Of a DNA stretch of 64,000 nucleotides, positions 2,824 through 49,285 are shown piece by piece. Made by a program: the position numbers and the translations under genes. Where the stretch lies: the IMG/VR virus record IMGVR_UViG_3300045988_101454, positions 32,001 through 96,000 of that record; one strand, written 5' to 3'. Within the stretch, counting starts at the first letter, position 1. Each line of letters opens with the position of its first letter. The notes under the pieces were generated by a model, which was given only the letters and a program-made list of their open reading frames with translations, did not search any database and was not told where the DNA came from. Source of the DNA: a virus.

Positions 2824-3195
2824 TTACAGCCGTTTGAGCAGCGTGCTGCATTTATGGCCTGATGCCTTTTCTTCGTAACCCAACCTTTCGTACCAATGCA
2901 ACACCCATGGAGGAGAATCGCGTCCGTCCCACGAGATTGCGACGGTCTCTACGCCGCAATACTTCAGCTCTTTTTCTACTGCCTCCATCAGTTTTTTTGC
3001 CACCTCACGGCCGCGGTGAGCTTCGTCAACCCACAGCGAGTAGATGAGAGCATCCGCTGCGCCATCCAAAGGTTTGTCTTCGGAATGATTAGGAATGAAC
3101 GCTTGTATGCTGCCATGATGCTGCTCGTCGGTGACGAGTATGCGAATAGAGTCTTCCCAATGTTGATGTTGTATCATAGTTGAAATGTTACGCAA
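2824..3195 (-). CDS. GNAT-family N-acetyltransferase
   Basis: 123 aa. LWVDEAHRGREVAKKLMEAVEKEL resembles the acetyl-CoA binding motif A. Confidence 0.7.
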   Translation of the reverse strand: MRNISTMIQHQHWEDSIRILVTDEQHHGSIQAFIPNHSEDKPLDGAADALIYSLWVDEAHRGREVAKKLMEAVEKELKYCGVETVAISWDGRDSPPWVLHWYERLGYEEKASGHKCSTLLKRL

Positions 3196-3249
3196 TTTTG
3201 TTTAGTCAGTCGACTGTCTGTATGCTTGTGCAAAGGTAGATTATCCCTT

Positions 3250-3618
3250 TTACTCGATACGGACATTCTCCTCGAAGTCGTATCTCACGTCTCGGCTTTG
3301 CGAAAAAGCCACAGGCGTTTGGGAGAAGATGTCTGCCTCACAGTCGGCAACGGCTCGCACGAACGCCTCGTACATCTTCTGTTCGTCATATTCTTCCAGA
3401 AAGCCCTGGCTTGTCTGCTGCCATAGCAGATCAGGGCGTTTGCCGTCCTTCTTGTTTCCTTTAACAATCAGCATGACACTTACGGAGTTTTCACCCTCGC
3501 GCACATCCGCACGAAGTATGCCGTAGCCAAGCGGTTTGCCAAAAGTGTAGCAACCACGATGATTCCCAAGAAAGCGGTAGCCGTAGTTTCGCAATGCCTT
3601 TATCACAAATTTTCTCAT
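3250..3618 (-). CDS. Hypothetical protein
   Basis: ORF-track frame. I prefer the ATG at 3616-3618 (MRKFVIKALRNYGY...). Confidence 0.5.
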   Translation of the reverse strand: MRKFVIKALRNYGYRFLGNHRGCYTFGKPLGYGILRADVREGENSVSVMLIVKGNKKDGKRPDLLWQQTSQGFLEEYDEQKMYEAFVRAVADCEADIFSQTPVAFSQSRDVRYDFEENVRIE

Positions 3619-3650
3619 ATTCAATTTTTTTTATAGTTCTACTAATACTT

Positions 3651-3794
3651 TTATCTCTGTATGCCCCCCTCCTGCGTATGCAGCGTGGGCGATATTCCTT
3701 TAGCGGAATACACGCGGCGGTTCTGCTCAAATATACGGTCGTAGGGTGGTGTCTGCATCATGCCGACTACGAGGGTGTGTGCGGTGTCAGTCAT
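3651..3794 (-). pseudogene. TRD-like mini-ORF 10 (C5-MTase target-recognition-like), frame set by a C6 tract
   Basis: MTDTAHTLVVGMMQTPPYDRIFEQNRRVYSAKGISPTLHTQEGG, then IQR and a stop. One extra G in tract 3664-3669 would give ...GGHTEIKVLVEL ending at 3631. ATGACTGA overlaps the upstream stop. Confidence 0.45.
3664..3669. repeat. C6/G6 homopolymer inside mini-ORF 10
   Basis: Sequence is atgcccccctcc. The tract length determines which C-terminal tail is read. Confidence 0.8.
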
Positions 3795-4485
3795 CGACAT
3801 CGATAAATCGGACCTTTGCTTCTGCAAACTTTTTCTCGCAAATAACACCAAGACCTTCAATGATGCCCAGGCATGATTTACATTCCAGACAGAATGTGGA
3901 GCATACATGAGGACCATCTTGATAGTACGGGCAGTTCGCCCCCTTTGCCATATAGAGTTTCTTGTCCTTCACAAAGGAATGAATTGCCTTTGCAAAACGC
4001 TCCAATTCCTTGTTCATCATTTCCACCGTGTCGCAATGATAGCGCAACTGGTTCATGTCGAAAGAAGTCTGCTTTGGCGTTTTTTCGTCATGCTGCTTCT
4101 CCGTTTCGTTCAACTGGCGTACCACGTCGTTGTAGTCGTCCATGAGCTGATGCACGCGCTGCTCAAGCTCCACGTTCTCTGCCTTCAAATCGGCGATGAT
4201 GTAGGCAAGCACCTCCATTCGGTTGTTCTTAGGTAGGTCTATATACTCGCATACAGCCAGATGTCTTTCCATATACTTGCGTTGCTCGTCAGTAGCGGGG
4301 TCGTAGGCATCGGCTGTTCGTGTGCCTACGCGATAGGGTGGAGGTGGGGTCTGAAAAATTCTTCGCATATCGGTAATTGCCGAATACTTCACCACTCCAT
4401 CTTCGTCTACTCGCGCTACCTTTACCAACATCTTTCGCTCTTTGTCGTAAAGGATGTCGCCAGGGGTGATTTCTTCTGTTTTCAT
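3787..4485 (-). CDS. Hypothetical coiled-coil protein with Cys-rich C-terminus
   Basis: 232 aa with C-terminal CPYYQDGPHVCSTFCLECKSC. Leader is AAACAATAGAGACAATG. Confidence 0.6.
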   Translation of the reverse strand: MKTEEITPGDILYDKERKMLVKVARVDEDGVVKYSAITDMRRIFQTPPPPYRVGTRTADAYDPATDEQRKYMERHLAVCEYIDLPKNNRMEVLAYIIADLKAENVELEQRVHQLMDDYNDVVRQLNETEKQHDEKTPKQTSFDMNQLRYHCDTVEMMNKELERFAKAIHSFVKDKKLYMAKGANCPYYQDGPHVCSTFCLECKSCLGIIEGLGVICEKKFAEAKVRFIDVDD

Positions 4486-4509
4486 TGTCTCTATTGTTTT
4501 TATTACATA

Positions 4510-5073
4510 TTATACAACAGCGAAATTATTGTCTTGCTGCTTCCGTTTTTGTCCTTCCTTGCAAACTATCTTGCCTCTGTCCTTCAGTCGGAGGCAGAAA
4601 TATTCACAATTCCAACACGCACAGCTATCCACTCTTACTGTTTCGAAATTTTCTTTGCAGAATGGGTCTCCAGTCTCCACCATATCGTGAGGACATTCTG
4701 TGTTTTTTACGAGAGCGAACCCTTTTTCCTCAAGCAGGTCGATAAGGGTGCTGCGCTCTCTCTTTAAGTTCACGTTCTCGCTTCGCAAGTTGGCAAGCGC
4801 GTTTCTGAGGTTGTCAGTCTCACGTCCTTGCGCTATGTTAGCGTTGCAGACGTTGGTGTAACCCTTATACAATTCCTTGAGATTGGCCTCCGTATTTTCC
4901 AGTTCCGCCACCACATCCTCATGCTTGTTTTCCAGATTGCGGAGATTCTTTACTACTCTTTTATAGCCTCTGGAAAAACGACGTATTTTTAGTTTCATAG
5001 CCTCGTTTTCGGCTACCAACTCTCCATAACGCCTCGCATCTGCAACACGCTTTTTCCATTCCTGATGTTTCAT
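4510..5073 (-). CDS. Hypothetical coiled-coil protein with Cys-rich C-terminus
   Basis: 187 aa with CPHD...CKEN...CACWNCEYFC. It has the same 17-nt leader (AAACAATAGAGACAATG) as 3787-4485. Confidence 0.6.
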   Translation of the reverse strand: MKHQEWKKRVADARRYGELVAENEAMKLKIRRFSRGYKRVVKNLRNLENKHEDVVAELENTEANLKELYKGYTNVCNANIAQGRETDNLRNALANLRSENVNLKRERSTLIDLLEEKGFALVKNTECPHDMVETGDPFCKENFETVRVDSCACWNCEYFCLRLKDRGKIVCKEGQKRKQQDNNFAVV

Positions 5074-5096
5074 TGTCTCTATTGTTTATGTTTTTT

Positions 5097-5264
5097 TTAA
5101 TTATACAACATACTCATTAATGCCGCAGCCCTTCTCTTGTCGGTAAATCCTTTGATGTTTACCCACTTGCCGAAGATGCAGTCTCCGACTCTTTTCTGAA
5201 CCATCCAGACGGTCACGGGTATGCAACCGTTGTAGGCATCCATCGGAACAATTCTTAGTTTCAT
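5097..5264 (-). CDS. Small hypothetical protein (55 aa)
   Basis: MKLRIVPMDAYNGCIPVTVWMVQKRVGDCIFGKW... It is below the ORF-track size cutoff and fills the gap between flanking genes. Confidence 0.35.
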   Translation of the reverse strand: MKLRIVPMDAYNGCIPVTVWMVQKRVGDCIFGKWVNIKGFTDKRRAAALMSMLYN

Positions 5265-5267
5265 ATC

Positions 5268-5447
5268 TTATTCAAATTTATATACTATATGCGGTGTGGT
5301 GTTGCCCAGTCCGTCGCGAGGGTCGGCAAAGCAGCCAGGCGGTGAGGTTGTCACGGCATTGGCTATCTGCTTGCGCGGTCGGCTCTTTACGAGGCCCTTA
5401 CCGTCCTTGCCGCTGCGTACCCATCCGATGTAATACTTATCAGTCAT
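5268..5447 (-). CDS. TRD-like mini-ORF 11 (59 aa)
   Basis: MTDKYYIGWVRSGKDGKGLVKSRPRKQIANAVTTSPPGCFADPRDGLGNTTPHIVYKFE. ATGA overlaps the stop of 5444-6250. Confidence 0.4.
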   Translation of the reverse strand: MTDKYYIGWVRSGKDGKGLVKSRPRKQIANAVTTSPPGCFADPRDGLGNTTPHIVYKFE

Positions 5448-6250
5448 CGGTCTGCGTTTTGCCCTGTCCCCAATCGTTCAATAGACTGGCATAATATCCC
5501 TTGTATTCTACCTGCCTCTTGCTCTGCCCTCTTTAGAGCTTCGTCACGCTCATGCTCCAGCTTTATGCAATATTCAGTCAAGCGATTGTATTCTTTCTGC
5601 AAGGCATTGAAATCCTCGCGCAGCTGCTCCAAATTGGGGTTTTCAGAATCCAATAACACAAGACGTTGCTTTTCCTTGTCCCATCTTTTCCCGATTTTCT
5701 CCACGGAATTGTTGAGAAGTTTTTCTTCCGTAGGCGTAGCGTATCTCAGTTCGATGCTTTTTTCTTCTTCGCGTGTACCGCGAAGGTCAAGCTGAGCGTT
5801 AAAAGTAAGCACGTCGCTGTTTTTGCATAAGCAGGCGTATGTCCTTATCTTGGGATAATCAGTAGATTCCACTCCGCTGAAAATCACAATGTAGGTCAGA
5901 ATGTTGCCATCTTCATACTTAATATCCATTGCCACGATGTCACCCGGCTGGAATTTGAGCACATTCCAACTTCGGTAAAGATGCGAGAGAAACAGCATAC
6001 ACTCTCCTTTGTCAAAACGCGCTATACGCCCGTTGTAAAGAAAAAAATGGTCGTATGCTTCATTCTCGTCAGGATGATGGAGGCCCAGCACAACACCCGA
6101 GGCGTTGAAATTATGCACCTCCATATAACCTAACAGAGGCGAATAAAGCATAGCGTCTACAGGCAAACTGTGGAGAAAAGCTGATAGTTTCTCATTCTCG
6201 AAAGTTTTTGCTCCCGTTTTAGGGATGCTTCTTGTTTCTTTTTGACTCAT
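5444..6250 (-). CDS. Hypothetical protein, paralog of 44270-44794
   Basis: 268 aa. Shared blocks are FLHSLPVDAMLYSPLLGY, GECMLF...RSWNVLKFQPGDIVAMD and RYATPTEEK. Confidence 0.65.
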   Translation of the reverse strand: MSQKETRSIPKTGAKTFENEKLSAFLHSLPVDAMLYSPLLGYMEVHNFNASGVVLGLHHPDENEAYDHFFLYNGRIARFDKGECMLFLSHLYRSWNVLKFQPGDIVAMDIKYEDGNILTYIVIFSGVESTDYPKIRTYACLCKNSDVLTFNAQLDLRGTREEEKSIELRYATPTEEKLLNNSVEKIGKRWDKEKQRLVLLDSENPNLEQLREDFNALQKEYNRLTEYCIKLEHERDEALKRAEQEAGRIQGILCQSIERLGTGQNADR

Positions 6251-6270
6251 AATGTCTCTATTTTAAATTG

Positions 6271-6422
6271 TTATTCATATTCTATCAATACAATGGTGTG
6301 CTGTCCGTGTTCATCGTAGAGCCCTGCCCATCCGTCGTAGCGGGCGGACAATGCCGTGGAATACCCCCCCGACGTGGGCAGAGCTGGGATGTGCGTTGTA
6401 CGAAAGGGATTTGTTTAATCAT
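6271..6422 (-). pseudogene. TRD-like mini-ORF 9, out of frame at a C7 tract
   Basis: MIKQIPFVQRTSQLCPRRGG, then out of frame. G8 instead of G7 would restore ...GGYSTALSARYDGWAGLYDEHGQHTIVLIEYE. ATGATTAA overlaps mini-ORF 8. Confidence 0.45.
6364..6370. repeat. C7/G7 homopolymer in mini-ORF 9
   Basis: Sequence is ataccccccc gacg. It is one nt short of the frame that gives the conserved tail. Confidence 0.85.
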
Positions 6423-6590
6423 ACGTTATCAATACCATATTGTCTTTGCCTACTGATGTGAGGGTGTTGGTTGTCCCCCCCCCCCGTTTATCTCCATTCG
6501 CTGAAAGAAGCGTCCGTTGGAGGGATGCTTGCGGTTGGACGGATTATCGGGGGCACGGCCTCGGAAGGCTGCTATGCGAAAGTCAATCAT
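6415..6590 (-). pseudogene. TRD-like mini-ORF 8, out of frame at a C11 tract
   Basis: MIDFRIAAFRGRAPDNPSNRKHPSNGRFFQRMEINGGG. With G9 or G12 it continues TTNTLTSVGKDNMVLITYD. As sequenced (G11) it stops at 6450. Confidence 0.45.
6475..6485. repeat. C11/G11 homopolymer in mini-ORF 8
   Basis: Sequence is ttgt + 11 C + gttt. This is the longest G/C tract in the window. Confidence 0.9.
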
Positions 6591-6876
6591 CCCCATTCCA
6601 TTTTTCATCATCCACAGTTCGTGCTATGAATATGCGATATGGGTTCTTCTTGTCTGTACTGGTTAGCTCTATTGCTTTTTCGATACTCTCCCTCGATACA
6701 AAGTCGCGTATCATCAACACTGCAAGGGCATCGAACTCGTCGTCCGACAAACAAACAGTATCTTCTCCTCGGCGGATAGTAACAAAGTCGCAAATAGTGT
6801 TGTGCCCGAAAGCCACATCAACATCTTCATTACGTTCGAGGTCTCTGACTATTATTTTTTCTGCGTAAAGACTCAT
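6583..6876 (-). CDS. Hypothetical protein
   Basis: 97 aa ORF that interrupts the mini-ORF run. Confidence 0.55.
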   Translation of the reverse strand: MSLYAEKIIVRDLERNEDVDVAFGHNTICDFVTIRRGEDTVCLSDDEFDALAVLMIRDFVSRESIEKAIELTSTDKKNPYRIFIARTVDDEKWNGDD

Positions 6877-6903
6877 ATTTCTTTTTGTTTATTATTTGTA
6901 CTA

Positions 6904-7080
6904 TTAATCGTAACATATTGCAATCAGATTGTCAGTGGTGAGGGAAGTACCTATACATTGCATCCAACATCCTTGTCGCAGATGCCATTCCTTATCACGG
7001 AAGTCGTTAGTGCCGATTAAGCGACGCACGGCTTTCGCGTGTTCGGTTCTGGCTTCGTGTATCAGATGAATGTTAAGCAT
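6904..7080 (-). CDS. TRD-like mini-ORF 7 (58 aa)
   Basis: MLNIHLIHEARTEHAKAVRRLIGTNDFRDKEWHLRQGCWMQCIGTSLTTDNLIAICYD. It is a paralog of mini-ORF 6. Confidence 0.5.
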   Translation of the reverse strand: MLNIHLIHEARTEHAKAVRRLIGTNDFRDKEWHLRQGCWMQCIGTSLTTDNLIAICYD

Positions 7081-7244
7081 AATAGGTTGTCTTTTGTTAC
7101 AGTTGTTATCGAATTGCTCCACGGCCACGGACTGGGGCGGTGATACTTTTCGCCGTATTTACACCCTCCGCGGTCGCCATGCTCACGACGGAAGGCTTTG
7201 GCTTCCTCGGTGCGGTAGTGGACGAGGACGGAACGGTCAATCAT
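7062..7244 (-). CDS. TRD-like mini-ORF 6 (60 aa)
   Basis: MIDRSVLVHYRTEEAKAFRREHGDRGGCKYGEKYHRPSPWPWSNSITTVTKDNLLCLTFI. ATGATTGA overlaps mini-ORF 5. Confidence 0.5.
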   Translation of the reverse strand: MIDRSVLVHYRTEEAKAFRREHGDRGGCKYGEKYHRPSPWPWSNSITTVTKDNLLCLTFI

Positions 7245-7386
7245 ACTCTATCAATATTTTCGGTTTATCCACGTCGTGACCCTTACCTCCCCCGGCTATG
7301 CACAAGGCTATGCCGTGTGGTGACACGATGATGCCGTTCTGCGAGGGGCTGTAGGAGCCAAGGATGATGGGGCGAGGGTTGTTCAT
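7237..7386 (-). CDS. TRD-like mini-ORF 5 (49 aa)
   Basis: MNNPRPIILGSYSPSQNGIIVSPHGIALCIAGGGKGHDVDKPKILIEYD. ATGA overlaps mini-ORF 4. Confidence 0.5.
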   Translation of the reverse strand: MNNPRPIILGSYSPSQNGIIVSPHGIALCIAGGGKGHDVDKPKILIEYD

Positions 7387-7550
7387 AATTCTACTGCTAC
7401 ATAATAGTGGTTACGACTGCTCACTCCAGCTTGAATGGTGTAGATGATACCCCTCCCGAATTGCTTGTTCTAGGTGTCTATCCATACGGCATGAGAGGGG
7501 CGGAAACCACGTTTGTACATTATTTCTAAGCGAGCGTTCTTGTTAAGCAT
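7383..7550 (-). CDS. TRD-like mini-ORF 4 with in-frame TAG at 7470-7472
   Basis: MLNKNARLEIMYKRGFRPSHAVWIDT-TAG-NKQFGRGIIYTIQAGVSSRNHYYVAVEL. The coupled start and stop are kept only if the TAG is read through. Confidence 0.4.
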
Positions 7551-7679
7551 ATTCAATCAGTACCCCTCCAGTTTTGTTGACAAGGTTAGGGTGGGGTATA
7601 TTCCTTTAGTACCGCAGATGTTGCCATCAAAACCGGACTTCCACTTGTCGTAATAAATGTTGCCAATCTTTTCAATCAT
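7543..7679 (-). pseudogene. TRD-like mini-ORF 3, frameshifted at a G4 run
   Basis: MIEKIGNIYYDKWKSGFDGNICGTKGIYPTLTLSTKLEG, then a stop at 7557. One extra G at 7563-7566 would give ...LEGVLIEYA and the usual ATGCTTAA overlap. Confidence 0.45.
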
Positions 7680-7827
7680 ATTCTACTATTACTGCCGTTG
7701 CTGCCCTGCCTCCCGTTGGCTTAATGAAATTCACCAAAGAATTGCGTTGGTACTGCGACTTAACGCATCGACATAACGCGGGAGAGGTAGAGACACTATC
7801 AGGGTTTAATGCTTTTATAAAAACCAT
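7672..7827 (-). CDS. TRD-like mini-ORF 2 (51 aa)
   Basis: MVFIKALNPDSVSTSPALCRCVKSQYQRNSLVNFIKPTGGRAATAVIVEYD. TAATG overlaps mini-ORF 1. Confidence 0.45.
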   Translation of the reverse strand: MVFIKALNPDSVSTSPALCRCVKSQYQRNSLVNFIKPTGGRAATAVIVEYD

Positions 7828-7952
7828 TATTCAAACTCATACAATACTACTGCCATTGGGTAATGGGCGAGCGTGAGGATGTTGGTAGGTCCGATAGCCT
7901 CGTAGCGTGTGGTTATGGTTGCCGCACAACATCCGTCAGTAACATTCACCAT
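7827..7952 (-). CDS. TRD-like mini-ORF 1 (41 aa)
   Basis: MVNVTDGCCAATITTRYEAIGPTNILTLAHYPMAVVLYEFE. It is in the same frame as the 8001-8441 ORF, separated from it by TAA. Confidence 0.45.
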   Translation of the reverse strand: MVNVTDGCCAATITTRYEAIGPTNILTLAHYPMAVVLYEFE

Positions 7953-8000
7953 CAGTCCGCTACCCCATTCAGACGGAATGGAGGTGCGACGTGGGTCAGC

Positions 8001-8441
8001 TTACACTCCATCCTTCTTCCTCTCCATATTTTCTTTGAACAATTCCTCAAATCCCTCGAATGGGAACGTGTGGTAATTGCAGAACGATTTCCAATAGCTA
8101 TCAAACACGAGTCGCATACCCTCTATACTATCCGCCAATTCGTCAAGCTCCATATCCCATCCGTTGATGGTGTTTATGAGGTTTTGTAGCCACGTCTTGA
8201 GGAACATTGCCGCCTCGTGTGTCGGTGGCAGGTCGAACTGAAGGAATAGGGCGTTGTCAGAGTCGTTGGTCGTGAGGAACTTGCTCACGGCATCGTCCTT
8301 GAGGAAATAGCGGCCGGACACTTCCTCTTCGAGCACGTCTTCCAGTCGGGTAAGTAGCTCGAAGGGTTCGGGAAACTGGTAGTCGAAGGCCACGTCACGG
8401 CGCATGGAGAGGCAGAACACCCTGTCGCGGTTTTGTGGCAC
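8001..8441 (-). CDS. C5 cytosine DNA methyltransferase fragment (motif VIII only) fused to an unrelated C-terminal region
   Basis: Starts (GTG)PQNRDRVFCLSMRRDVAFDYQFPEP...LEDVLEEEVSGRYFL. Homology continues upstream as NYGV across an in-frame TAG at 8451-8453. Motifs I, IV, VI, IX and X were not found anywhere in the window. Confidence 0.6.
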   Translation of the reverse strand: MPQNRDRVFCLSMRRDVAFDYQFPEPFELLTRLEDVLEEEVSGRYFLKDDAVSKFLTTNDSDNALFLQFDLPPTHEAAMFLKTWLQNLINTINGWDMELDELADSIEGMRLVFDSYWKSFCNYHTFPFEGFEELFKENMERKKDGV

Positions 8442-8513
8442 GCCGTAGTTCTAGTCGTTGTAGTGGGTTTGTGGGGAGTCTTGGTTTTGTTAAAGTTCAT
8501 GGGGGTTGGTGTT

Positions 8514-9149
8514 TTATCGTCTTACTTCCAGCCATGTGTTACAGCGACCGATCCCAAACTTTGCAGCCACCGCACAAAAACTCTTGTCGTGATGACCAGA
8601 CCGACAAGTCCCTAAGTCAGCACAGGTATCACAGCCGAAATCCATATAATCTGGATGATACCATACCTTGTCGCCAATCTCACGGATATAGCCTCTCTTT
8701 GTATCTACCACCAAGGTTCTTCCGACGGAATTTCTTTTGGGTTTATTCACAACAACCTTATACCGATTGTTTTTCTTCCTTACGACATGACATTCATTAC
8801 GCATCGACCATCTCGGGTCAAAAACACGGAAGTCAATGCGCCACTTTTTGGGAAAATGGAACTTCTTCGGGTCGCAATAGTTGGAAAGTACTTTGCGGTC
8901 AGTAGAAACAATCTCTTCCCAGTTGTCACAACAACGAAGTACGTCAACCCTCCATCCTATGCGACGCTGTACTATATCTAACAGCGATGGATAATTACGC
9001 GGCTTCTCCCAGATTCCTCTAAAGTAAAGATTGTATCTGTCAAGCAGCACCTTGTTTCTTGCTTTCATAGTCTTTATAAATTCTTTTATATTGTTAATGT
9101 TTTCGCATTGAGCTGAAATCTTTGTTTCACCAATATGCTCTTTGAGCAA
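8514..9149 (-). CDS. Hypothetical Cys-rich protein
   Basis: 211 aa with C-terminal CDTCADLGTCRSGHHDKSFC...GRC. Start is uncertain (TTG in the track). Confidence 0.5.
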   Translation of the reverse strand: MLKEHIGETKISAQCENINNIKEFIKTMKARNKVLLDRYNLYFRGIWEKPRNYPSLLDIVQRRIGWRVDVLRCCDNWEEIVSTDRKVLSNYCDPKKFHFPKKWRIDFRVFDPRWSMRNECHVVRKKNNRYKVVVNKPKRNSVGRTLVVDTKRGYIREIGDKVWYHPDYMDFGCDTCADLGTCRSGHHDKSFCAVAAKFGIGRCNTWLEVRR

Positions 9150-9210
9150 AATACTCTTTTAAGGATAGATAACTACGCTTGTGAAAACGCATTTTCATCT
9201 GACTGGGATT

Positions 9211-9348
9211 TTAGTGTCTATGCTGACGTTTTCTTGCCAAACGAATACTTGCACCAAAGACACAATATCCTCCATTCACTTTCACTAAATTTTCCGAATC
9301 AAACGAAATTGTGTACTCGTAAGTACGTTCTTTTATATTTGCTGCCAT
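9211..9348 (-). CDS. Small ORF (45 aa), in frame with YopX-like gene across TAG-CGT-ATG
   Basis: MAANIKERTYEYTISFDSENLVKVNGGYCVFGASIRLARKRQHRH. It starts one codon after the TAG stop at 9352-9354, in the same frame. Confidence 0.3.
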   Translation of the reverse strand: MAANIKERTYEYTISFDSENLVKVNGGYCVFGASIRLARKRQHRH

Positions 9349-9351
9349 ACG

Positions 9352-9819
9352 CTATTCATCTTTGAGGTTCAACTTCTCTTGCCATTCTGGGTCGTGTATA
9401 TCACCGACAATCTCAAAGTCCTCAAGTTTCTGTTGCGTGATTCCGTCAGAGATGCCATCAGAGATGCCACGCACAGCGGATTTCGGGTTTTTGACACAGG
9501 TGAGAAAAAACATCGCCTCTTCATCACTCCACCCTATAATGCCAAAGTAATTGTCACGCGCACCATCCTCCATGCGACTGAATGGGTATTCGTCCGAGCG
9601 AAGAAGATCGCCCTCATAAATCTCCTTACCGTTCTTGTCGAGGTAGCCGGTGAACTGGCAGACGGTGCGAGGGTCAACCTTGTAGGGGATGTTTCTATTC
9701 AACATACTTTCCTTTTGCCTATCCTCGATAATGTATGTGTTATCATTCTCCTCGTAGAAGTAACCACAAGTCCATTCTTTATTATCAAGGCGTTTAGCCT
9801 TAAACTTGATTGTTCTCAT
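9352..9819 (-). CDS. YopX-like phage protein
   Basis: MRTIKFKAKRLDNKEWTCGYFYEE... has a typical YopX N-terminus. It ends in TAG. Confidence 0.55.
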   Translation of the reverse strand: MRTIKFKAKRLDNKEWTCGYFYEENDNTYIIEDRQKESMLNRNIPYKVDPRTVCQFTGYLDKNGKEIYEGDLLRSDEYPFSRMEDGARDNYFGIIGWSDEEAMFFLTCVKNPKSAVRGISDGISDGITQQKLEDFEIVGDIHDPEWQEKLNLKDE

Positions 9820-30800: not shown

Positions 30801-33432
30801 GAGTTGCTGTCTCTACAGCAGCCTGACCAAGAGTAGATTTCCATGCGTTTGCCTGACGTTCTGCTTCTTTTTGAGCTTTTGCCGCTTCTTTTGTCTGCTG
30901 TGCATAACCATACACAACTCCAGCAACAGCAACTATAACGCTTGCAAGAGCCACCCAAGGATTCACCTTCATTACAGAGTTAAGTCCCGTTTGAGCTGCG
31001 GTGGCTGTGCGCGTGGCCGTAACATACGCATACAGTTGGCTTACAGCCGAGCCAATGGCTGCTCCGAAATTCTTAATAAGAATCAATCCGGAATATATAC
31101 CCTGTGAAGCCATATAGCCAATGATGACTGGCAGAAGGGTCGCTACGGCTTTCAATGCCATAAGAACCATCTGAAGAGAAACAAGCAATGTGCCTTTCAG
31201 CAACGGACTGTTTGTCATCGTTGCCGACATCTCATACCACCATTCCGCCATACTCTTTACAGCATCCACACCGTCGGGATTTACAAACGCCTTCTCCCAA
31301 AGATTGTTGGCTCTTTCGAGAATACCTATGGCCGACTGTTGCTGCATCGAGTATTCATTACCTACGGCAGTGGCTTCACGGAAAGCCTCTTCCGACTCGT
31401 AGAGATGATCCTTCAGCATATCCACGTTCTTCGACATGGTAACCATAGCGGTAACGAGTCGCTGACCGTCTGAACCGAGGTCTTTAAAAATGCCACCCAA
31501 GGCGTTCATGTTGCCCTTGTCGCGCATTTTTTCGAGCACAAGCACAATAGCATCCATAGCGTGACCCGACGCATAGAGATTCTTGATTGTCTCGTCGGGT
31601 ATGCCGAGTTCCTTTGCAATAAGGTTGTGGTTTTTCTGCAAAGCTACGATAAACTTACCCATAGCGGTAGAGGCCACCTCCGGCATAAGCATCATCGAAG
31701 AACTTGCAGAACCGAGGGCAAGCAACTGGTCGGTGGTGATACCCGCGGTACGAGCAACACCCGTCAGCCGCTTTGAAAATTCTACAATGTCGTTGGAAGT
31801 TGAAGTGCTCGTAGAAGACAACTTAAACAGGGCAGAACCCGTAGCCTCCATTGCCTTGTCGATACCCATCTTCGGGATAAGACCCATCACCTCCACCATC
31901 TTAGAGAGTGCCGGCAACGCTTCCTCGCCCATTTCCTCACCAATGGCAACATTTATCTTGTCGGCTGCTTTTACGAACTGAGCCATACCCTCAACGCCGT
32001 ACTTACCCATGCCGAGCTTCGCACCCTGGTACGCGAGTTGTGCCAGCCCATCCACAGATGTTCTGGTGTCAATTTTAGCCAACTCGGTAGAGAGTTGTTT
32101 TACCTGATCCATCGTCAAGCCAGAAACCTTACGGATGTCGGTCAACGAACCTGAATACTCCAAGTTCTTCTTGATGGCACCCGTCACAAGGTCTTTTATC
32201 TGATTGAATACGGAAAACAATCCTACATAAGCCGTAAGATTTTTCAACGCCGTATGCCATGCTCCGCCCTGCTTGTTTGCCGCACCCGTCACTTCGTCGA
32301 TGTTCTTCTTCAGCTCCTCCATCGACTTCTGCTTGTCGGCAAACTCCTTGCTCTTGGTGTTGATTTGGTTCAGTTCCTCTTCAAGCTGTTTGTAGGCACG
32401 GCGCAGTTCGTCGAGAGAGGCTTTACCCTTCTTGCTACGGGCGAGAATGTCGTTGAGAGCACTCTGCGACATACGGGTGCCCTTGAGGGTCTGTTCGAGC
32501 ATGGAGTATTGGCGACGGAGGTCGGCCACAAACTTGCTACCAGCAGGGAGTTGCTGTATCTTCTGCTGTATCACTTCCATCGTGCGCTTGATGTCTTCGC
32601 CCGAAGCCTTGTTGGGCTCTGCCAACACCTGCTTCATCTGCTTCCAGCTCATTGATGTTTTCTGAACCTTACCCGACACAGCCTCCAGTCGCTTTTCTAT
32701 CTCCTGGAGCTCTTTGTTGTATTGCGCAATGTCGCCAGTATTTGCTGTAGGAGTATTGTCACGAGCCTCAGTAAGCGTGGTCTTAGCGCGTCGCAGGTCG
32801 GAAGCCGAAGCATTACCATTGCTCACAGCCTGACGTGCCTCAGTTACGCTCATCTTGCCCTTACGTCTGTCCTCCTCGGCTTCAAGCTGCTTCAATGTGG
32901 CAAGGTTCTGCTGATACGACGCATCCGACTTTTGCAGCGAACCAACAAGGTCACGCTGTTGCTTAATGGCCTTATCGAGCCACTGATCGGATTGGTTCTT
33001 TACATTCTTCAAGCCATCGGCTATATTAACATACTGACCCTCGATAAGGCGCATTTGGTCGCCCACCTGCTTCATCTCGCTTCGTATCTGCTCTGCCCTC
33101 TTCAGGTCGGCATCCGAGCCGGTAAGACCTGCGAGAGCCGACTTACCCGAACCCATAGCACGGCGAAGATCACGCAGTTTAGTATTGGCAAGGTCTTGCA
33201 CCACCTCGCCCAATCGCTTCGTGTCCTCGATATTGTCACGCTGTACTTGCGAGAGAGCCTTTAGCGTGCGTTCTGCTTGCTTACACTCAGCCGTATTAGC
33301 CTGACCTGCAGCAGTCATTTTCTGAATGTCGGCAGTATATTTCTGCACAAGAGCGTCAATCTCTTCCAATACCTTTTTGGCTGTAGAGGCATTGGCCGTG
33401 ATTACCACTTTTGCTAATCTTTGTGTTGCCAT
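27856..33432 (-). CDS. Tail tape measure protein
   Basis: 1858 aa with long coiled coils, central hydrophobic segments and a Gly/Ala-rich C-terminal region. It ends in TAG. Confidence 0.8.
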   Translation of the reverse strand: MATQRLAKVVITANASTAKKVLEEIDALVQKYTADIQKMTAAGQANTAECKQAERTLKALSQVQRDNIEDTKRLGEVVQDLANTKLRDLRRAMGSGKSALAGLTGSDADLKRAEQIRSEMKQVGDQMRLIEGQYVNIADGLKNVKNQSDQWLDKAIKQQRDLVGSLQKSDASYQQNLATLKQLEAEEDRRKGKMSVTEARQAVSNGNASASDLRRAKTTLTEARDNTPTANTGDIAQYNKELQEIEKRLEAVSGKVQKTSMSWKQMKQVLAEPNKASGEDIKRTMEVIQQKIQQLPAGSKFVADLRRQYSMLEQTLKGTRMSQSALNDILARSKKGKASLDELRRAYKQLEEELNQINTKSKEFADKQKSMEELKKNIDEVTGAANKQGGAWHTALKNLTAYVGLFSVFNQIKDLVTGAIKKNLEYSGSLTDIRKVSGLTMDQVKQLSTELAKIDTRTSVDGLAQLAYQGAKLGMGKYGVEGMAQFVKAADKINVAIGEEMGEEALPALSKMVEVMGLIPKMGIDKAMEATGSALFKLSSTSTSTSNDIVEFSKRLTGVARTAGITTDQLLALGSASSSMMLMPEVASTAMGKFIVALQKNHNLIAKELGIPDETIKNLYASGHAMDAIVLVLEKMRDKGNMNALGGIFKDLGSDGQRLVTAMVTMSKNVDMLKDHLYESEEAFREATAVGNEYSMQQQSAIGILERANNLWEKAFVNPDGVDAVKSMAEWWYEMSATMTNSPLLKGTLLVSLQMVLMALKAVATLLPVIIGYMASQGIYSGLILIKNFGAAIGSAVSQLYAYVTATRTATAAQTGLNSVMKVNPWVALASVIVAVAGVVYGYAQQTKEAAKAQKEAERQANAWKSTLGQAAVETATLNKKLENYKRMMNETNLSQKERQGLISRFNKDFRSYISNLGIEIKSVKDLRDHYSELAQEAQRATYYRMMEKAKQQALPKLDADRDSAANALLAQIQKLGIDKLGVSFTDIDRWVSKGANGNAVFWNLVKKMPKNKSGLIDGFNWKLSKGGFIYRDTYDGGKAGINSDDSQMQYKLRDLLFAARWYANSTGRRRKKEKDIEDNYRKWFPEGYTPYPEETPGTLENDVPDNDAIAQEKRDRRALERAWREELKQKQDDANAIMDNVRNFYERQINAKMQEAIGLGMDKTEQDLFVEPVKRRMNEALEQVRLAIAGQTNTWEQFKLTMKDDLIEQTDETGVNLSEGLLKGITSNNIDALRKKLNELGSNLNRSLNSILAEVFAKATKNAQANLKLETQQQEARRKAMQEHDYTGVVKQSAYDTFNTLGYANPTDAEVKDKAAFDTRKTKIIAMFERAREEISQIFAADVSTEEGRGLLMKTLFGEDPDGMGKRISETLGSSAAEWQAFFLKLIQYNDEYESANKKGDDERKKLNDYGWSKTDFYKDYQSKLPGMEQESSINVSYRNAGQRMGMESVSASDPELELMKARMEFARQYYTFLEEHNATEQQLADARKSIMAEQANYAKKLTGDMFEQYNSLLTFMGPLQTFGESVGDAFATMTENAAEGRKALKTALKQMIKSFATNTLQMISQQQIDRAQTTAHYTQLLLMQQAFGTAKVEGEAATGAALLMAKTVNNQTEEQLEVAHQKVMAALRSAGIFGWCVSTLGPIAGPIAYSAMMAILMGLLNFAISKVGGSDKSKNETAKGKNTKVVSGMLTYDSGNVQDLRPFVGNDGSLYWATEDNKPHNGVSLLTHPTATTINGHPSLVAENGPELVIGRETTQAMMMNNPQLLKALVNYDRNYSGRRAYDAGNIAETSPTVSTGASVSDELTIAQANTNIALLQAVNTLLQRLEQPIEAKIDMYGRGKLYDSMTRANQFMKNK

Positions 33433-37291: not shown

Positions 37292-38144
37292 ATGATAACA
37301 GAGAATTTACAGAAAAAGATTGATCGTGCCATCCGTCTGCTTCAAGGCATACAGAAGTTATACGATGGCGAGATAGAGATAGCCTATTCGGGCGGTAAGG
37401 ACTCCGACGTGATCCTTCAACTGGCGAAAGAGTCCGGCATCAAGTATCGAGCCATATACAAGAATACGACCATCGACTCGCCAGGCACGTTGGGGCACGT
37501 CAGGGAAATGGGAGTGGAGATACTGCGGGCAAGATTCCCTTTTTTTCATCTCGTGGCGCAGAAAGGATTTCCATCTCGCTATAGTCGTTTCTGTTGTGAA
37601 AAACTGAAGGAATATAAGGTGCTCAACAAAAGCATTATCGGCGTGCGCAAGGCTGAGAGCTGGAAACGAAACGAAAGATACAACGAGCCAACAAAGTGCC
37701 GATACTACGGAGCGAAGAAAGAGGAAAATCACGTAGAACAGATTTATCCTATTCTGGAATGGACCGATGAGGACGTGCGCAACTTCATCATAGACAGAAA
37801 GTTGAAACTCGCACCCATTTATTACAATTCGGGGGGGGCAAATCGACGTGTCGAAACGTCTCGGCTGCATGTGCTGCCCTCTCGCCTCAAGGCGCAAGCG
37901 CATTATCGAGTTTCAGAAATATCCCAAGATAGCAAAGGCTTATCTCCGTGCGGGGCAACGATTTATGGAAACGCATCCTGACAGCAAGGCGTGCCAGAGG
38001 TACGACAACGTTTACGAATGGTTCACTCGCGACGTATTTTACAGCTCCGATACAGATTGGAACAAGGTAAGCACAGGGCTGTTCGGTAAGCCGGACTTCA
38101 AGAAGTTCTTGGAGGACAAGTTCTGTATTGACTTGACATTATAA
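37292..38144 (+). pseudogene. PP-loop ATPase (PAPS reductase/DndC-like superfamily), frameshifted at a G8 tract
   Basis: Has the SGGKDS PP-loop. G7 instead of G8 would join ...IYYNSGGQIDVSKRLGCMCCPLASRRK.... Two track ORFs overlap here. Confidence 0.7.
37831..37838. repeat. G8 homopolymer in PP-loop ATPase gene
   Basis: Sequence is aattc + 8 G + caaatc. It is one nt longer than the in-frame length. Confidence 0.9.
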
Positions 38145-38478: not shown

Positions 38479-39088
38479 ATGAACAACAACATAAAAAGAA
38501 AGGACTGGGTGGGCGGCTCGGCCGCTGTATTCAAGACGTTGGGCGCAAGCAACCATACGGATGCGGATAGACAGCGTGAGGATTACTATGCCACAGAACC
38601 GAAAGCGACGGAATGGCTGTGCAAACTGGAGCATTTTGAGGGCCGGATATTGGAGCCTTCGTGTGGCGAGGGTCACATGAGCCGGGTGTTGGAGGCAGCA
38701 GGATATGAGGTGGTGAGCCGCGACCTTGTGGATAGAGGTTACGGCGAGGTGGCTGACTTCCTCTCAATAGACAACTTGGCGTGGGACGGAAACATCATCA
38801 CCAATCCGCCCTACAAATTCGCACAGCAGTTCGTTGTGAAGGCTCTGAGCATCATCCCCGAAGGAAAGAAAGTGGCGATGTTCCTTAAGCTAACTTTCCT
38901 CGAAGGCAAGGCTCGACGCACTCTCTTCCGTTCTACCCCCCCCCATTCGTGTTTGGGTAAGCTCGTCACGACTGAAATGCGCTCCAAACGGCGACTTCAA
39001 CGCTATTGTTGGCAGCGCAACGGCTTACGCATGGTTTGTATGGGAGAAAGGATATAAAGGCGAGACAACTGTAAAATGGTTTAACTGA
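38479..39088 (+). pseudogene. N6-adenine-type DNA methyltransferase (motif I then NPPY), frameshifted at a C9 tract
   Basis: ILEPSCGEGHMSRVL and IITNPPYKF. C8 instead of C9 would give ...TPPIRVWVSSSRLKCAPNGDFNAIVGSATAYAWFVWEKGYKGETTVKWFN. Confidence 0.7.
38936..38944. repeat. C9 homopolymer in methyltransferase gene
   Basis: Sequence is ttcta + 9 C + attcg. It is one nt longer than the in-frame length. Confidence 0.9.
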
Positions 39089-49050: not shown

Positions 49051-49285
49051 TTAATATAATCTCGCCCTGCTATCGCTCATATCATCCATCGTGCGCACCT
49101 TATACCATTTCTTCACTCGGTTCTTCGGCGCATACACCTTTGAAAGCCCGATAAAGCTGCTGCAAGCGAGGTGCAGAGGACTGATGTTGCCGCCGAACAG
49201 CGGGGAACTCTGCTCCCTGCAACTACATTTTATGTGGTTGTAAGAAATGCAGTTTTCGCATCTGGGGGGGGGTGAATGTTCGCAT
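49051..49285 (-). pseudogene. Cys-rich small protein (78 codons if G8), out of frame at a G9 tract
   Basis: ATG at 49283-49285 gives MRTFTPP and then stops early. G8 would give ...PPRCENCISYNHIKCSCREQSSPLFGGNISPLHLACSSF...KKWYKVRTMDDMSDSRARLY. Confidence 0.4.
49264..49272. repeat. G9 homopolymer at codons 6-8 of the Cys-rich small ORF
   Basis: Sequence is catct + 9 G + tgaatg. Confidence 0.9.

Follow-up and report, generated by a model that had tools for sequence, protein, structure and literature searches.

A 64,000-nucleotide stretch of viral DNA (positions 32,001 to 96,000 of the IMG/VR virus record IMGVR_UViG_3300045988_101454; hereafter the window) carries on its minus strand a set of very small genes, two of which, mini-genes 8 and 9, are each broken at a run of G residues. 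These mini-genes are real and conserved and are homologous to the target-recognition domains (TRDs) of canonical multi-TRD phage C5 methyltransferases, and the lengths of such runs change far faster than ordinary sites, shifting the frame of one module at a time. The interpretation we favor, with a probability of roughly 0.6, is that of a split, multispecific C5 methyltransferase whose TRD modules are switched by the runs, where the array in this particular genome has been orphaned and is decaying. Here, the run of eleven G residues in mini-gene 8 (G11) and the G7 run in mini-gene 9 would most likely be OFF alleles of TRD families K and L, and the fastest-mutating sites in a decaying array. 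The window is phage DNA, encoding a head maturation protease, a sliding clamp, a primase, a ligase, a YopX-domain protein, and RtcB, and it comes from a human-gut tailed phage of about 95 kb, with Prevotella possibly the host. Relatives for comparison were taken from IMG/VR and other assemblies, and comprise about 25 gut-phage genomes of roughly 95 kb.

Frame-setting runs and their variation among relatives

Three-frame translation places the interruption of mini-genes 8 and 9 precisely at the G-run of each. In mini-gene 8 (about 6590 to 6415, minus strand), MIDFRIAAFRGRAPDNPSNRKHPSNGRFFQRMEINGGGG is read in one frame and TTNTLTSVGKDNMVLITYD, followed by a stop, in another; the plus strand carries C11 at 6475-6485, which is G11 on the coding strand, so that 11 nucleotides (nt) are present where 9 or 12 are required for frame. 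Mini-gene 9 (6422 to 6271, minus strand) reads MIKQIPFVQRTSQLCPRRGG and then, in the other frame, YSTALSARYDGWAGLYDEHGQHTIVLIEYE and a stop, with C7 on the plus strand at 6364-6370 (G7 on the coding strand) where G8 or G5 is required. A third run, G6 at 3664-3669, interrupts mini-gene 10 (3794 to 3631, minus strand), which requires G7. All three TRD runs of the window are out of frame, and each is correctable by +1 nt. An initial annotation, made from the letters alone, had named these breaks, the lengths required in mini-genes 8 and 9, and a third tract in mini-gene 10, and was right on each.

Both the number of runs and their codon composition go beyond chance expectation. The window holds four G/C runs of at least 8 nt against 0.23 expected, a number reached by 0 of 100 first-order Markov simulations, and 14 matches to the G7 pattern against 2.17 expected, with 0 of 100 shuffles reaching 14. 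The runs consist of GGG, the rarest Gly codon (5.3% in 50 long open reading frames, ORFs), and in the long ORFs GGGGGG encodes only 1 of 54 Gly-Gly pairs. In mini-genes 8 and 9 the run encodes a Gly loop directly before a conserved T-L motif (INGGG-TTNTL and RRGG-YSTAL), and not the GG position of QEGG or AGGGKG type that the initial annotation had assigned to it; this post-T-L position is occupied by the run of mini-gene 10 only. The accompanying idea that the tract lies in a tolerated part of the protein does hold, where family L occurs naturally as RR-G, RR-GG, and RR-GGG at 49, 50, and 51 amino acids (aa), and column variability in family K peaks at the run position.

Run length differs between genomes whose flanks are identical. 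The mini-gene 8 site is covered by 28 IMG/VR contigs with identical flanks, in which the 22 interrupted alleles all measure exactly 9 nt, a length that is in frame (e.g., GTTGGAGGT), while the pure runs are G6T, G7T, or G8T, with five of the six out of frame; the window has G11. The genome L002 is 98-99% identical to the window and the two differ at all three G-runs, where L002 has G8T in frame at mini-gene 8, G6 at mini-gene 9, and G7 in frame at mini-gene 10. Tracts that are invariant and out of frame throughout would have spoken against the initial annotation; with lengths differing, and two of three in frame, in so close a relative, this does not apply. Two further genomes from different samples, L093 and L007, encode an identical core protein (described below) and show four differences in 8326 nt, three of which fall within G-runs: G6 versus G7, G10 versus G7, and one G-to-A change within a run.

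A census of about 290 TRD copies from 17 families gives the same picture on a larger scale: of about 41 lesions, 31-34 are frameshifts at G-runs, the remainder being 3 frameshifts elsewhere and 4 nonsense codons. Where no run exceeds G5, about 96% of copies are intact, while those with a run of at least G6 divide into 16 ON and 29 OFF (64% OFF). G-runs are found in at least 8 TRD families, and in the frameshifted copies both halves align without further stops or shifts. The set of ON and OFF modules differs from genome to genome, in keeping with the earlier suggestion of independent, combinatorial states. In essence, three features of contingency loci occur together here: a frame-setting repeat in a coding region, length polymorphism with identical flanks, and OFF alleles that are otherwise intact. 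One public assembly breaks exactly at the G11 run, which likewise fits hypermutability and is a hint of switching within a population. Switching by repeat slippage across the phage family is supported by these sequence comparisons.

Runs are also present in other genes of the window. A C9 run at 38936-38944 (plus strand), in the ORF 38479-39057, breaks an NPPY (N6-adenine type) methyltransferase, whose conserved C-terminus (..YAWFVWEKG..) resumes in another frame. At this site, 34 related contigs carry C8 in frame (16 contigs), interrupted alleles that are all 8 nt and in frame (9 contigs), or the out-of-frame alleles C9 (4), C7 (3), and C6 (2), so that the in-frame C8 makes up the majority of pure runs (16 of 25). 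A G8 run at 37831-37838 (plus strand) splits a PAPS-reductase-like gene (PF01507) into the ORFs 37292-37981 and 37848-38144, with the GCMCCP part following in another frame; in 15 related contigs this segment measures 6-14 nt, 6 being in frame and 9 out. Both the G8 and the C9 run require a correction of -1, opposite to that of the TRD runs. Separately, a G9 run at 49264-49272 (C9 on the gene strand) is intergenic: a 77-aa ORF stops before it and a 202-aa gene starts after it, with 286 nt in between. This run is G7, G8, or G9 in three genomes with identical flanks, and it may be a promoter or leader run.

TRD mini-genes and a permuted core truncated in this genome

The mini-genes recur as free-standing proteins of fixed length. 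The protein of mini-gene 8 is represented by 161 clusters at 90% identity, nearly all of exactly 57 aa, and that of mini-gene 9 by 86 clusters, mostly of 49-51 aa; both are stand-alone. The ratio of nonsynonymous to synonymous substitution rates (dN/dS) could be estimated for 15 module families and falls between 0.06 and 0.27 in 14 of them, with run-bearing families at 0.19-0.24. A profile of the 57-aa family gives 1020 protein matches, among them full-length PF00145 enzymes, where the match sits between motifs VIII and IX (P0183 residues 291-335, P0205 250-299, P0245 277-323). Several full-length PF00145 enzymes carry homologues of mini-genes 10, 8, and 6a in tandem, as in the multispecific enzyme P0185, where they precede motif IX, and tblastn with C5 enzymes as query matches mini-genes 8, 10, and 6a in the window. 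The T-L/V dipeptide with adjoining Gly-rich loops is also present (TNTLTS in mini-gene 8, STALS in 9, and SPTLHTQEGG in 10). With these profile and tblastn matches, what the initial annotation had called TRD-like can be called true TRD modules. A single-chain multispecific architecture of the SPR type is not what is seen, each TRD being an individual ORF bounded by a start and a stop codon of its own. A megablast of positions 3000-9500 of the window against a phage collection gave no match, a Pfam scan of the single modules returned nothing but the core remnant described below, as expected for variable regions, and the TRD-family profile had no match among PDB sequences.

Three further TRD-profile matches, P0158, P0141, and P0135, contain several tandem TRDs followed by motifs IX and X only, without motifs I-VIII. 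Their motif IX-X part is close to the N-terminus of the permuted core, and these proteins appear to be split C5 methyltransferases of a second type.

In relatives of the window, the array is accompanied by a catalytic core, a 441-aa ORF for which L007 4784-6109 serves as the reference. Its motifs run in the order IX (IRKLTPKECFRLMGV), X (QAGNSICIDV), I, IV (SSPCQDIS), VI (LLQENV), and VIII (YGVPQNRDRVF), followed by a helix-rich tail with no T-L motif, and it matches PF00145 at 3e-48. Residues 15-49 of the L007 core align to residues 333-367 of M.MpeI and residues 193-350 to residues 117-277, an alignment showing that the core is circularly permuted and without a TRD. The permutation, with IX-X ahead of I-VIII, was established on the core of relatives (L007/P0271), the N-terminal 282 residues being deleted in the window. 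The core is intact in most relatives covering it and, at 441 aa, recurs in thousands of protein clusters, of which some bear the label Caudoviricetes and one that of Prevotella sp.; it is flanked on both sides by TRD mini-genes of at least 17 families.

Some relatives depart from this arrangement. L013 (5570) and L014 (6520) encode a C5 methyltransferase of conventional motif order where others have the permuted core, with a G8 or G7 run in its own internal TRD that is out of frame in both, and they keep mere remnants of the mini-TRD array. In L008 (6010), L009 (6014), and L011 (6009), the 3′ end of the core enters a G7 or G8 run, beyond which a family G TRD lacking a start codon (GIIYTIQAGVSSRNHYYVAVEL) is encoded in another frame; core and TRD would be joined into one protein if the run were longer by one G or shorter by two, and no in-frame allele is present in these three genomes. 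In L016, the core gene is frameshifted between residues 22 and 23, at a C7 run (4595) close to its 5′ end, suggesting that the core itself may be switchable in some phages.

The system we propose would consist of two parts, the first being the 441-aa permuted core (IX-X-I-IV-VI-VIII) without a TRD and the second the tandem arrays of 43-105-aa mini-genes on both sides of it, translationally coupled and encoding one TRD each. The C-terminal hydrophobic strand of the mini-gene products (..ILIEYD) would correspond to the strand ahead of motif IX of conventional enzymes. Natural circularly permuted C5 methyltransferases are known (M.BssHII, M.Alw26I, M2.Eco31I, M.Esp3I, and M2.BsaI), as is fragment complementation of C5 methyltransferases (M.SssI and M.MpeI) (PMC5944983), from which we infer that the mini-proteins supply the TRD in trans. 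Each would dock on the core and lend it one methylation specificity, with many motifs being methylated as a result. In many TRD genes the poly-G run lies in the Gly loop beside the T-L recognition motif, where a change in length shifts the frame of a single module. Phage populations would then be mixed for methylated motifs, and such mixtures would hedge between hosts with ordinary restriction and hosts with methylation-dependent restriction. In the lineage of the window, a deletion of about 2.4 kb has removed core residues 1-282 and has probably left the array without its catalytic partner. A broader version holds that a widespread family of human-gut phages has a new type of C5 methyltransferase combining the TRD-less permuted core with interchangeable 45-105-aa specificity subunits, randomly switched by poly-G/C runs and with the N6-methyltransferase and PAPS-reductase-like genes included, each burst being a hedging mix of methylation patterns; this version is more tentative, and we place it slightly below an even chance. 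Action of free TRDs with the core, reversible switching within a clone, and an adaptive value of switching are what these schemes would predict.

The loss of the core is visible in the region 8001-8520 (minus strand), where about 2.4 kb is deleted compared to L007. Core residues 1-282 are gone and the last 157 are kept, and the same deletion also took three or four TRD mini-genes and two other genes. Contigs from two further samples are identical to the window and belong with it to this lineage, while the near-identical L002 has a different, larger core truncation at the same place. Neither a regular-expression search nor tblastn with 8 enzymes located a PCQ, ENV, IX, or X motif in the window, no other C5 catalytic domain was found within its 64 kb, and a full catalytic core (motifs I, IV, VI, VIII, IX, and X) is not present there. 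Ordinary lesions affect two of the eleven window modules (M3 and M4) versus about 2% elsewhere; by alignment, the deletion in M3 is 5 nt upstream of its G-rich stretch, and so outside the G-run. The truncated core, the two ordinary lesions, and the OFF state of all three runs indicate that the array here is probably orphaned and decaying under relaxed selection, and with the core truncated, run switching would probably have no methylation output in this genome. The proposal that the tracts are switchable contingency loci is thus only partly supported, applying to the behavior of the runs across the phage family but not to a working switch in the window.

Two readings of the non-run lesions were rejected. 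Confinement of such lesions to core-less genomes does not hold, with the cores of L033 and L040 intact. Reassignment of a stop codon does not explain the in-frame stops, which are TAG here and TAA in L033 and L040 and replace Tyr, Gln, and Ser, and it is also excluded by the long ORFs that are intact under table 11.

The eleven small modules lie on the minus strand between 8468 and 3631 (Table 1). Every module closes with a hydrophobic strand and an immediate stop (..ILIEYD, ..LITYD, or ..VLVEL before the stop), and most share a stop/start overlap with the next gene, where GAATATGATTGA encodes EYD and a stop in one frame and MI.. in the other. In the same manner, the ATG of mini-gene 9 overlaps the YD-stop of mini-gene 8 (TATGATTAA). 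The array is mosaic between phages, with modules gained and lost. A 97-aa gene at 6583-6876 (minus strand), between modules 6b and 8, has no family match; it is missing from most relatives (L007, L012, L015, and L016), which points to a recent insertion.

Table 1. Mini-genes, homopolymer runs, and core remnant of the window (positions in the window)
Feature	Position	Strand	Description
C5-methyltransferase core remnant	8001..8468	minus	Residues 283-439 at 8468-8010; motif VIII YGVPQNRDRVF and C-terminal region
Mini-gene M1	7827..7952	minus	Family D2, intact
Mini-gene M2	7672..7827	minus	Family E, intact
Mini-gene M3	7543..7679	minus	Family F, inactivated by 1-nt deletion (ACACAAAC to ACAAAAC)
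Mini-gene M4	7383..7550	minus	Family G, inactivated by nonsense change TAC to TAG at 7472-7470
Mini-gene M5	7237..7386	minus	Family H, ...GIALCIAGGGKGHDVDKPKILIEYD, intact
Mini-gene M6a	7062..7244	minus	Family I, RTEEAK...SNSITTVTKDN, intact
Mini-gene M6b	6904..7080	minus	Family J, intact
Mini-gene 8	6415..6590	minus	Family K, 57 aa, RGR..NPS..QRMEIN-GGG-TTNTLTSVGKDN, frameshifted at G11
G11 homopolymer in mini-gene 8	6475..6485	minus	Out of frame; in-frame alleles 9 nt
Mini-gene 9	6271..6422	minus	Family L, 49-51 aa, frameshifted at G7
G7 homopolymer in mini-gene 9	6364..6370	minus	Out of frame; natural in-frame alleles G5, G8, or interrupted
Mini-gene of family M	5268..5447	minus	59 aa, ...IANAVTTS...HIVYKFE, intact
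Mini-gene 10	3631..3794	minus	Family N, 54 aa, RRVYSAKGISPTLHTQEGGHTEIKVLVEL, frameshifted at G6 (3664-3669)

Alternative explanations for the runs

Several points weigh against a run-switched, split methyltransferase. The ON fraction among alleles of at least G6 is 16 of 45 (36%, about one third), as random run lengths would yield; it equals the neutral expectation and does not demonstrate selection for switching. Non-run lesions also occur in L033 and L040, whose cores are intact, and the decay of a single module thus does not require core loss. A second core may be encoded outside the window, which covers 64 kb of a roughly 95-kb genome. Structural modelling with AlphaFold2 added no support and was not used as evidence: the core model reached a predicted local distance difference test (pLDDT) score of only 34, with an alignment too shallow, and the TRD model, at pLDDT 61, is all-beta with the run-encoded residues between strands 2 and 3 and gave no Foldseek match below E = 1.

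The ON share bears most directly on neutral decay, the alternative that survives best, where the G-runs are mere mutational hot spots and the TRD genes bearing them are becoming pseudogenes, with no adaptive role. This explanation retains appreciable weight because the share is that of random run lengths, and it also draws on the loss of the core and the two ordinary lesions in this genome, as well as on the natural alleles of mini-gene 8, most of which (22 of 28) are interrupted and free of a run. However, the sequence to either side of the run is otherwise intact in OFF copies, and dN/dS in the run-bearing families remains at the low values given above. The runs are made of the rarest Gly codon and occur in no fewer than 8 TRD families as well as two further modification genes, and among the pure runs of the NPPY gene the in-frame C8 is in clear excess. 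With these points on both sides, we regard purely neutral decay as unlikely.

Bypass of the frameshift, by transcriptional slippage or ribosomal frameshifting at the G-run, would keep OFF alleles partly expressed. A length of G11 is sufficient for RNA polymerase slippage in other systems, and the same +1 nt correction fits all three TRD runs of the window, but relatives require differing corrections (+2 or -1 for G6T, +1 for G7T). All interrupted alleles are in frame and require no recoding, and no stimulatory element was seen, although no search was made for one. Recoding by slippage is possible but not needed, and as an explanation of the runs we consider bypass improbable.

A silent cassette store, in which unexpressed mini-ORFs form a reservoir recombining into fused methyltransferase genes, would suit the high mosaicism of arrays whose modules come and go between phages, and the one short sequence shared by their junctions (GAATATGATTGA). 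It is very improbable given that start codons, stop/start overlaps, and exact lengths are conserved, that dN/dS is low, that no fused expression site lies beside the arrays, and that the core lacks a TRD in thousands of clusters. Least credible is homopolymer sequencing or assembly error: long G-runs are difficult for Illumina, and the public assembly of sample ERZ27229712 breaks exactly at G11 (L005 ends in AAACGG and then Illumina adapter, AGATCGGAAGAGCACA, while L003 begins with G7), but G7 and G6 recur unchanged in contigs of two further samples, as does G11 in one of them, long ORFs with A/T runs are intact, and the in-frame alleles are backed by hundreds of independently predicted 57-aa and 49-51-aa proteins. 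Systematic undercalling of homopolymers, which the shared +1 correction of the three TRD runs might suggest, was rejected, with G8 and C9 needing -1 and independent assemblies in agreement.

Relation to known systems and significance

The Bacillus phages SPR, phi3T, and rho11s, studied in the Trautner laboratory, encode multispecific C5 methyltransferases. Like these enzymes, and like P0185 and P0129, the proposed system has one core and several short modular TRDs, one per target, and the TRD types of mini-genes 8, 10, and 6a are those found in tandem in P0185. Unlike SPR-type enzymes, where all TRDs lie in one polypeptide between motifs VIII and IX, the TRDs here are separate genes of 43-105 aa and the core has none. 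Permuted enzymes of the M.BssHII type differ in another respect, in that they keep their TRD at one chain end, whereas the core of these phages is TRD-less amid free TRD genes. M.AquI is a two-subunit C5 methyltransferase, and, as with the fragments of M.SssI and M.MpeI, an active enzyme can form from polypeptides divided within or close to the variable region, as is proposed here. In contrast to the two fixed halves of these enzymes, one core would be served by many alternative small subunits, an arrangement nearer to HsdS of Type I systems.

Homopolymer switching also has parallels. In bacterial phasevarions, poly-G runs occur in methyltransferase genes of Campylobacter and Helicobacter (PMC4889913), where a homopolymer inside the gene varies in length and switches motif methylation, as we propose for the TRD modules. 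Phasevarions are bacterial and have one run per whole enzyme, while the runs described here belong to a phage and are distributed over several specificity modules, one run to each. In Campylobacter phages, hypermutable poly-G tracts create mixed populations (Sorensen et al. 2021, Cell Rep 35:109214, as cited in PMC12823448); in the account given there, the runs lie in receptor-binding protein genes and alter host adsorption, whereas those described here lie in DNA-modification genes. Our literature search turned up no account of free-standing TRD mini-genes, nor of phage methyltransferases switched by poly-G.

For the window itself, these results describe an array without its enzyme, where the G-runs would record mutational behavior and not a working switch. 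For the phage family, the system, if true, would be the first C5 methyltransferase given its sequence specificity by separate miniature subunits, a natural plug-in system of interest for programmable methylation, and the first repeat-driven phase variation of methylation specificity in a phage. Genes of 43-60 aa that are often frameshifted are missed by standard annotation or labelled pseudogenes, even though the core is present in thousands of gut-metagenome protein clusters. Mini-genes of this kind, switched one at a time, would give the arms race of gut phages with restriction systems a new layer.
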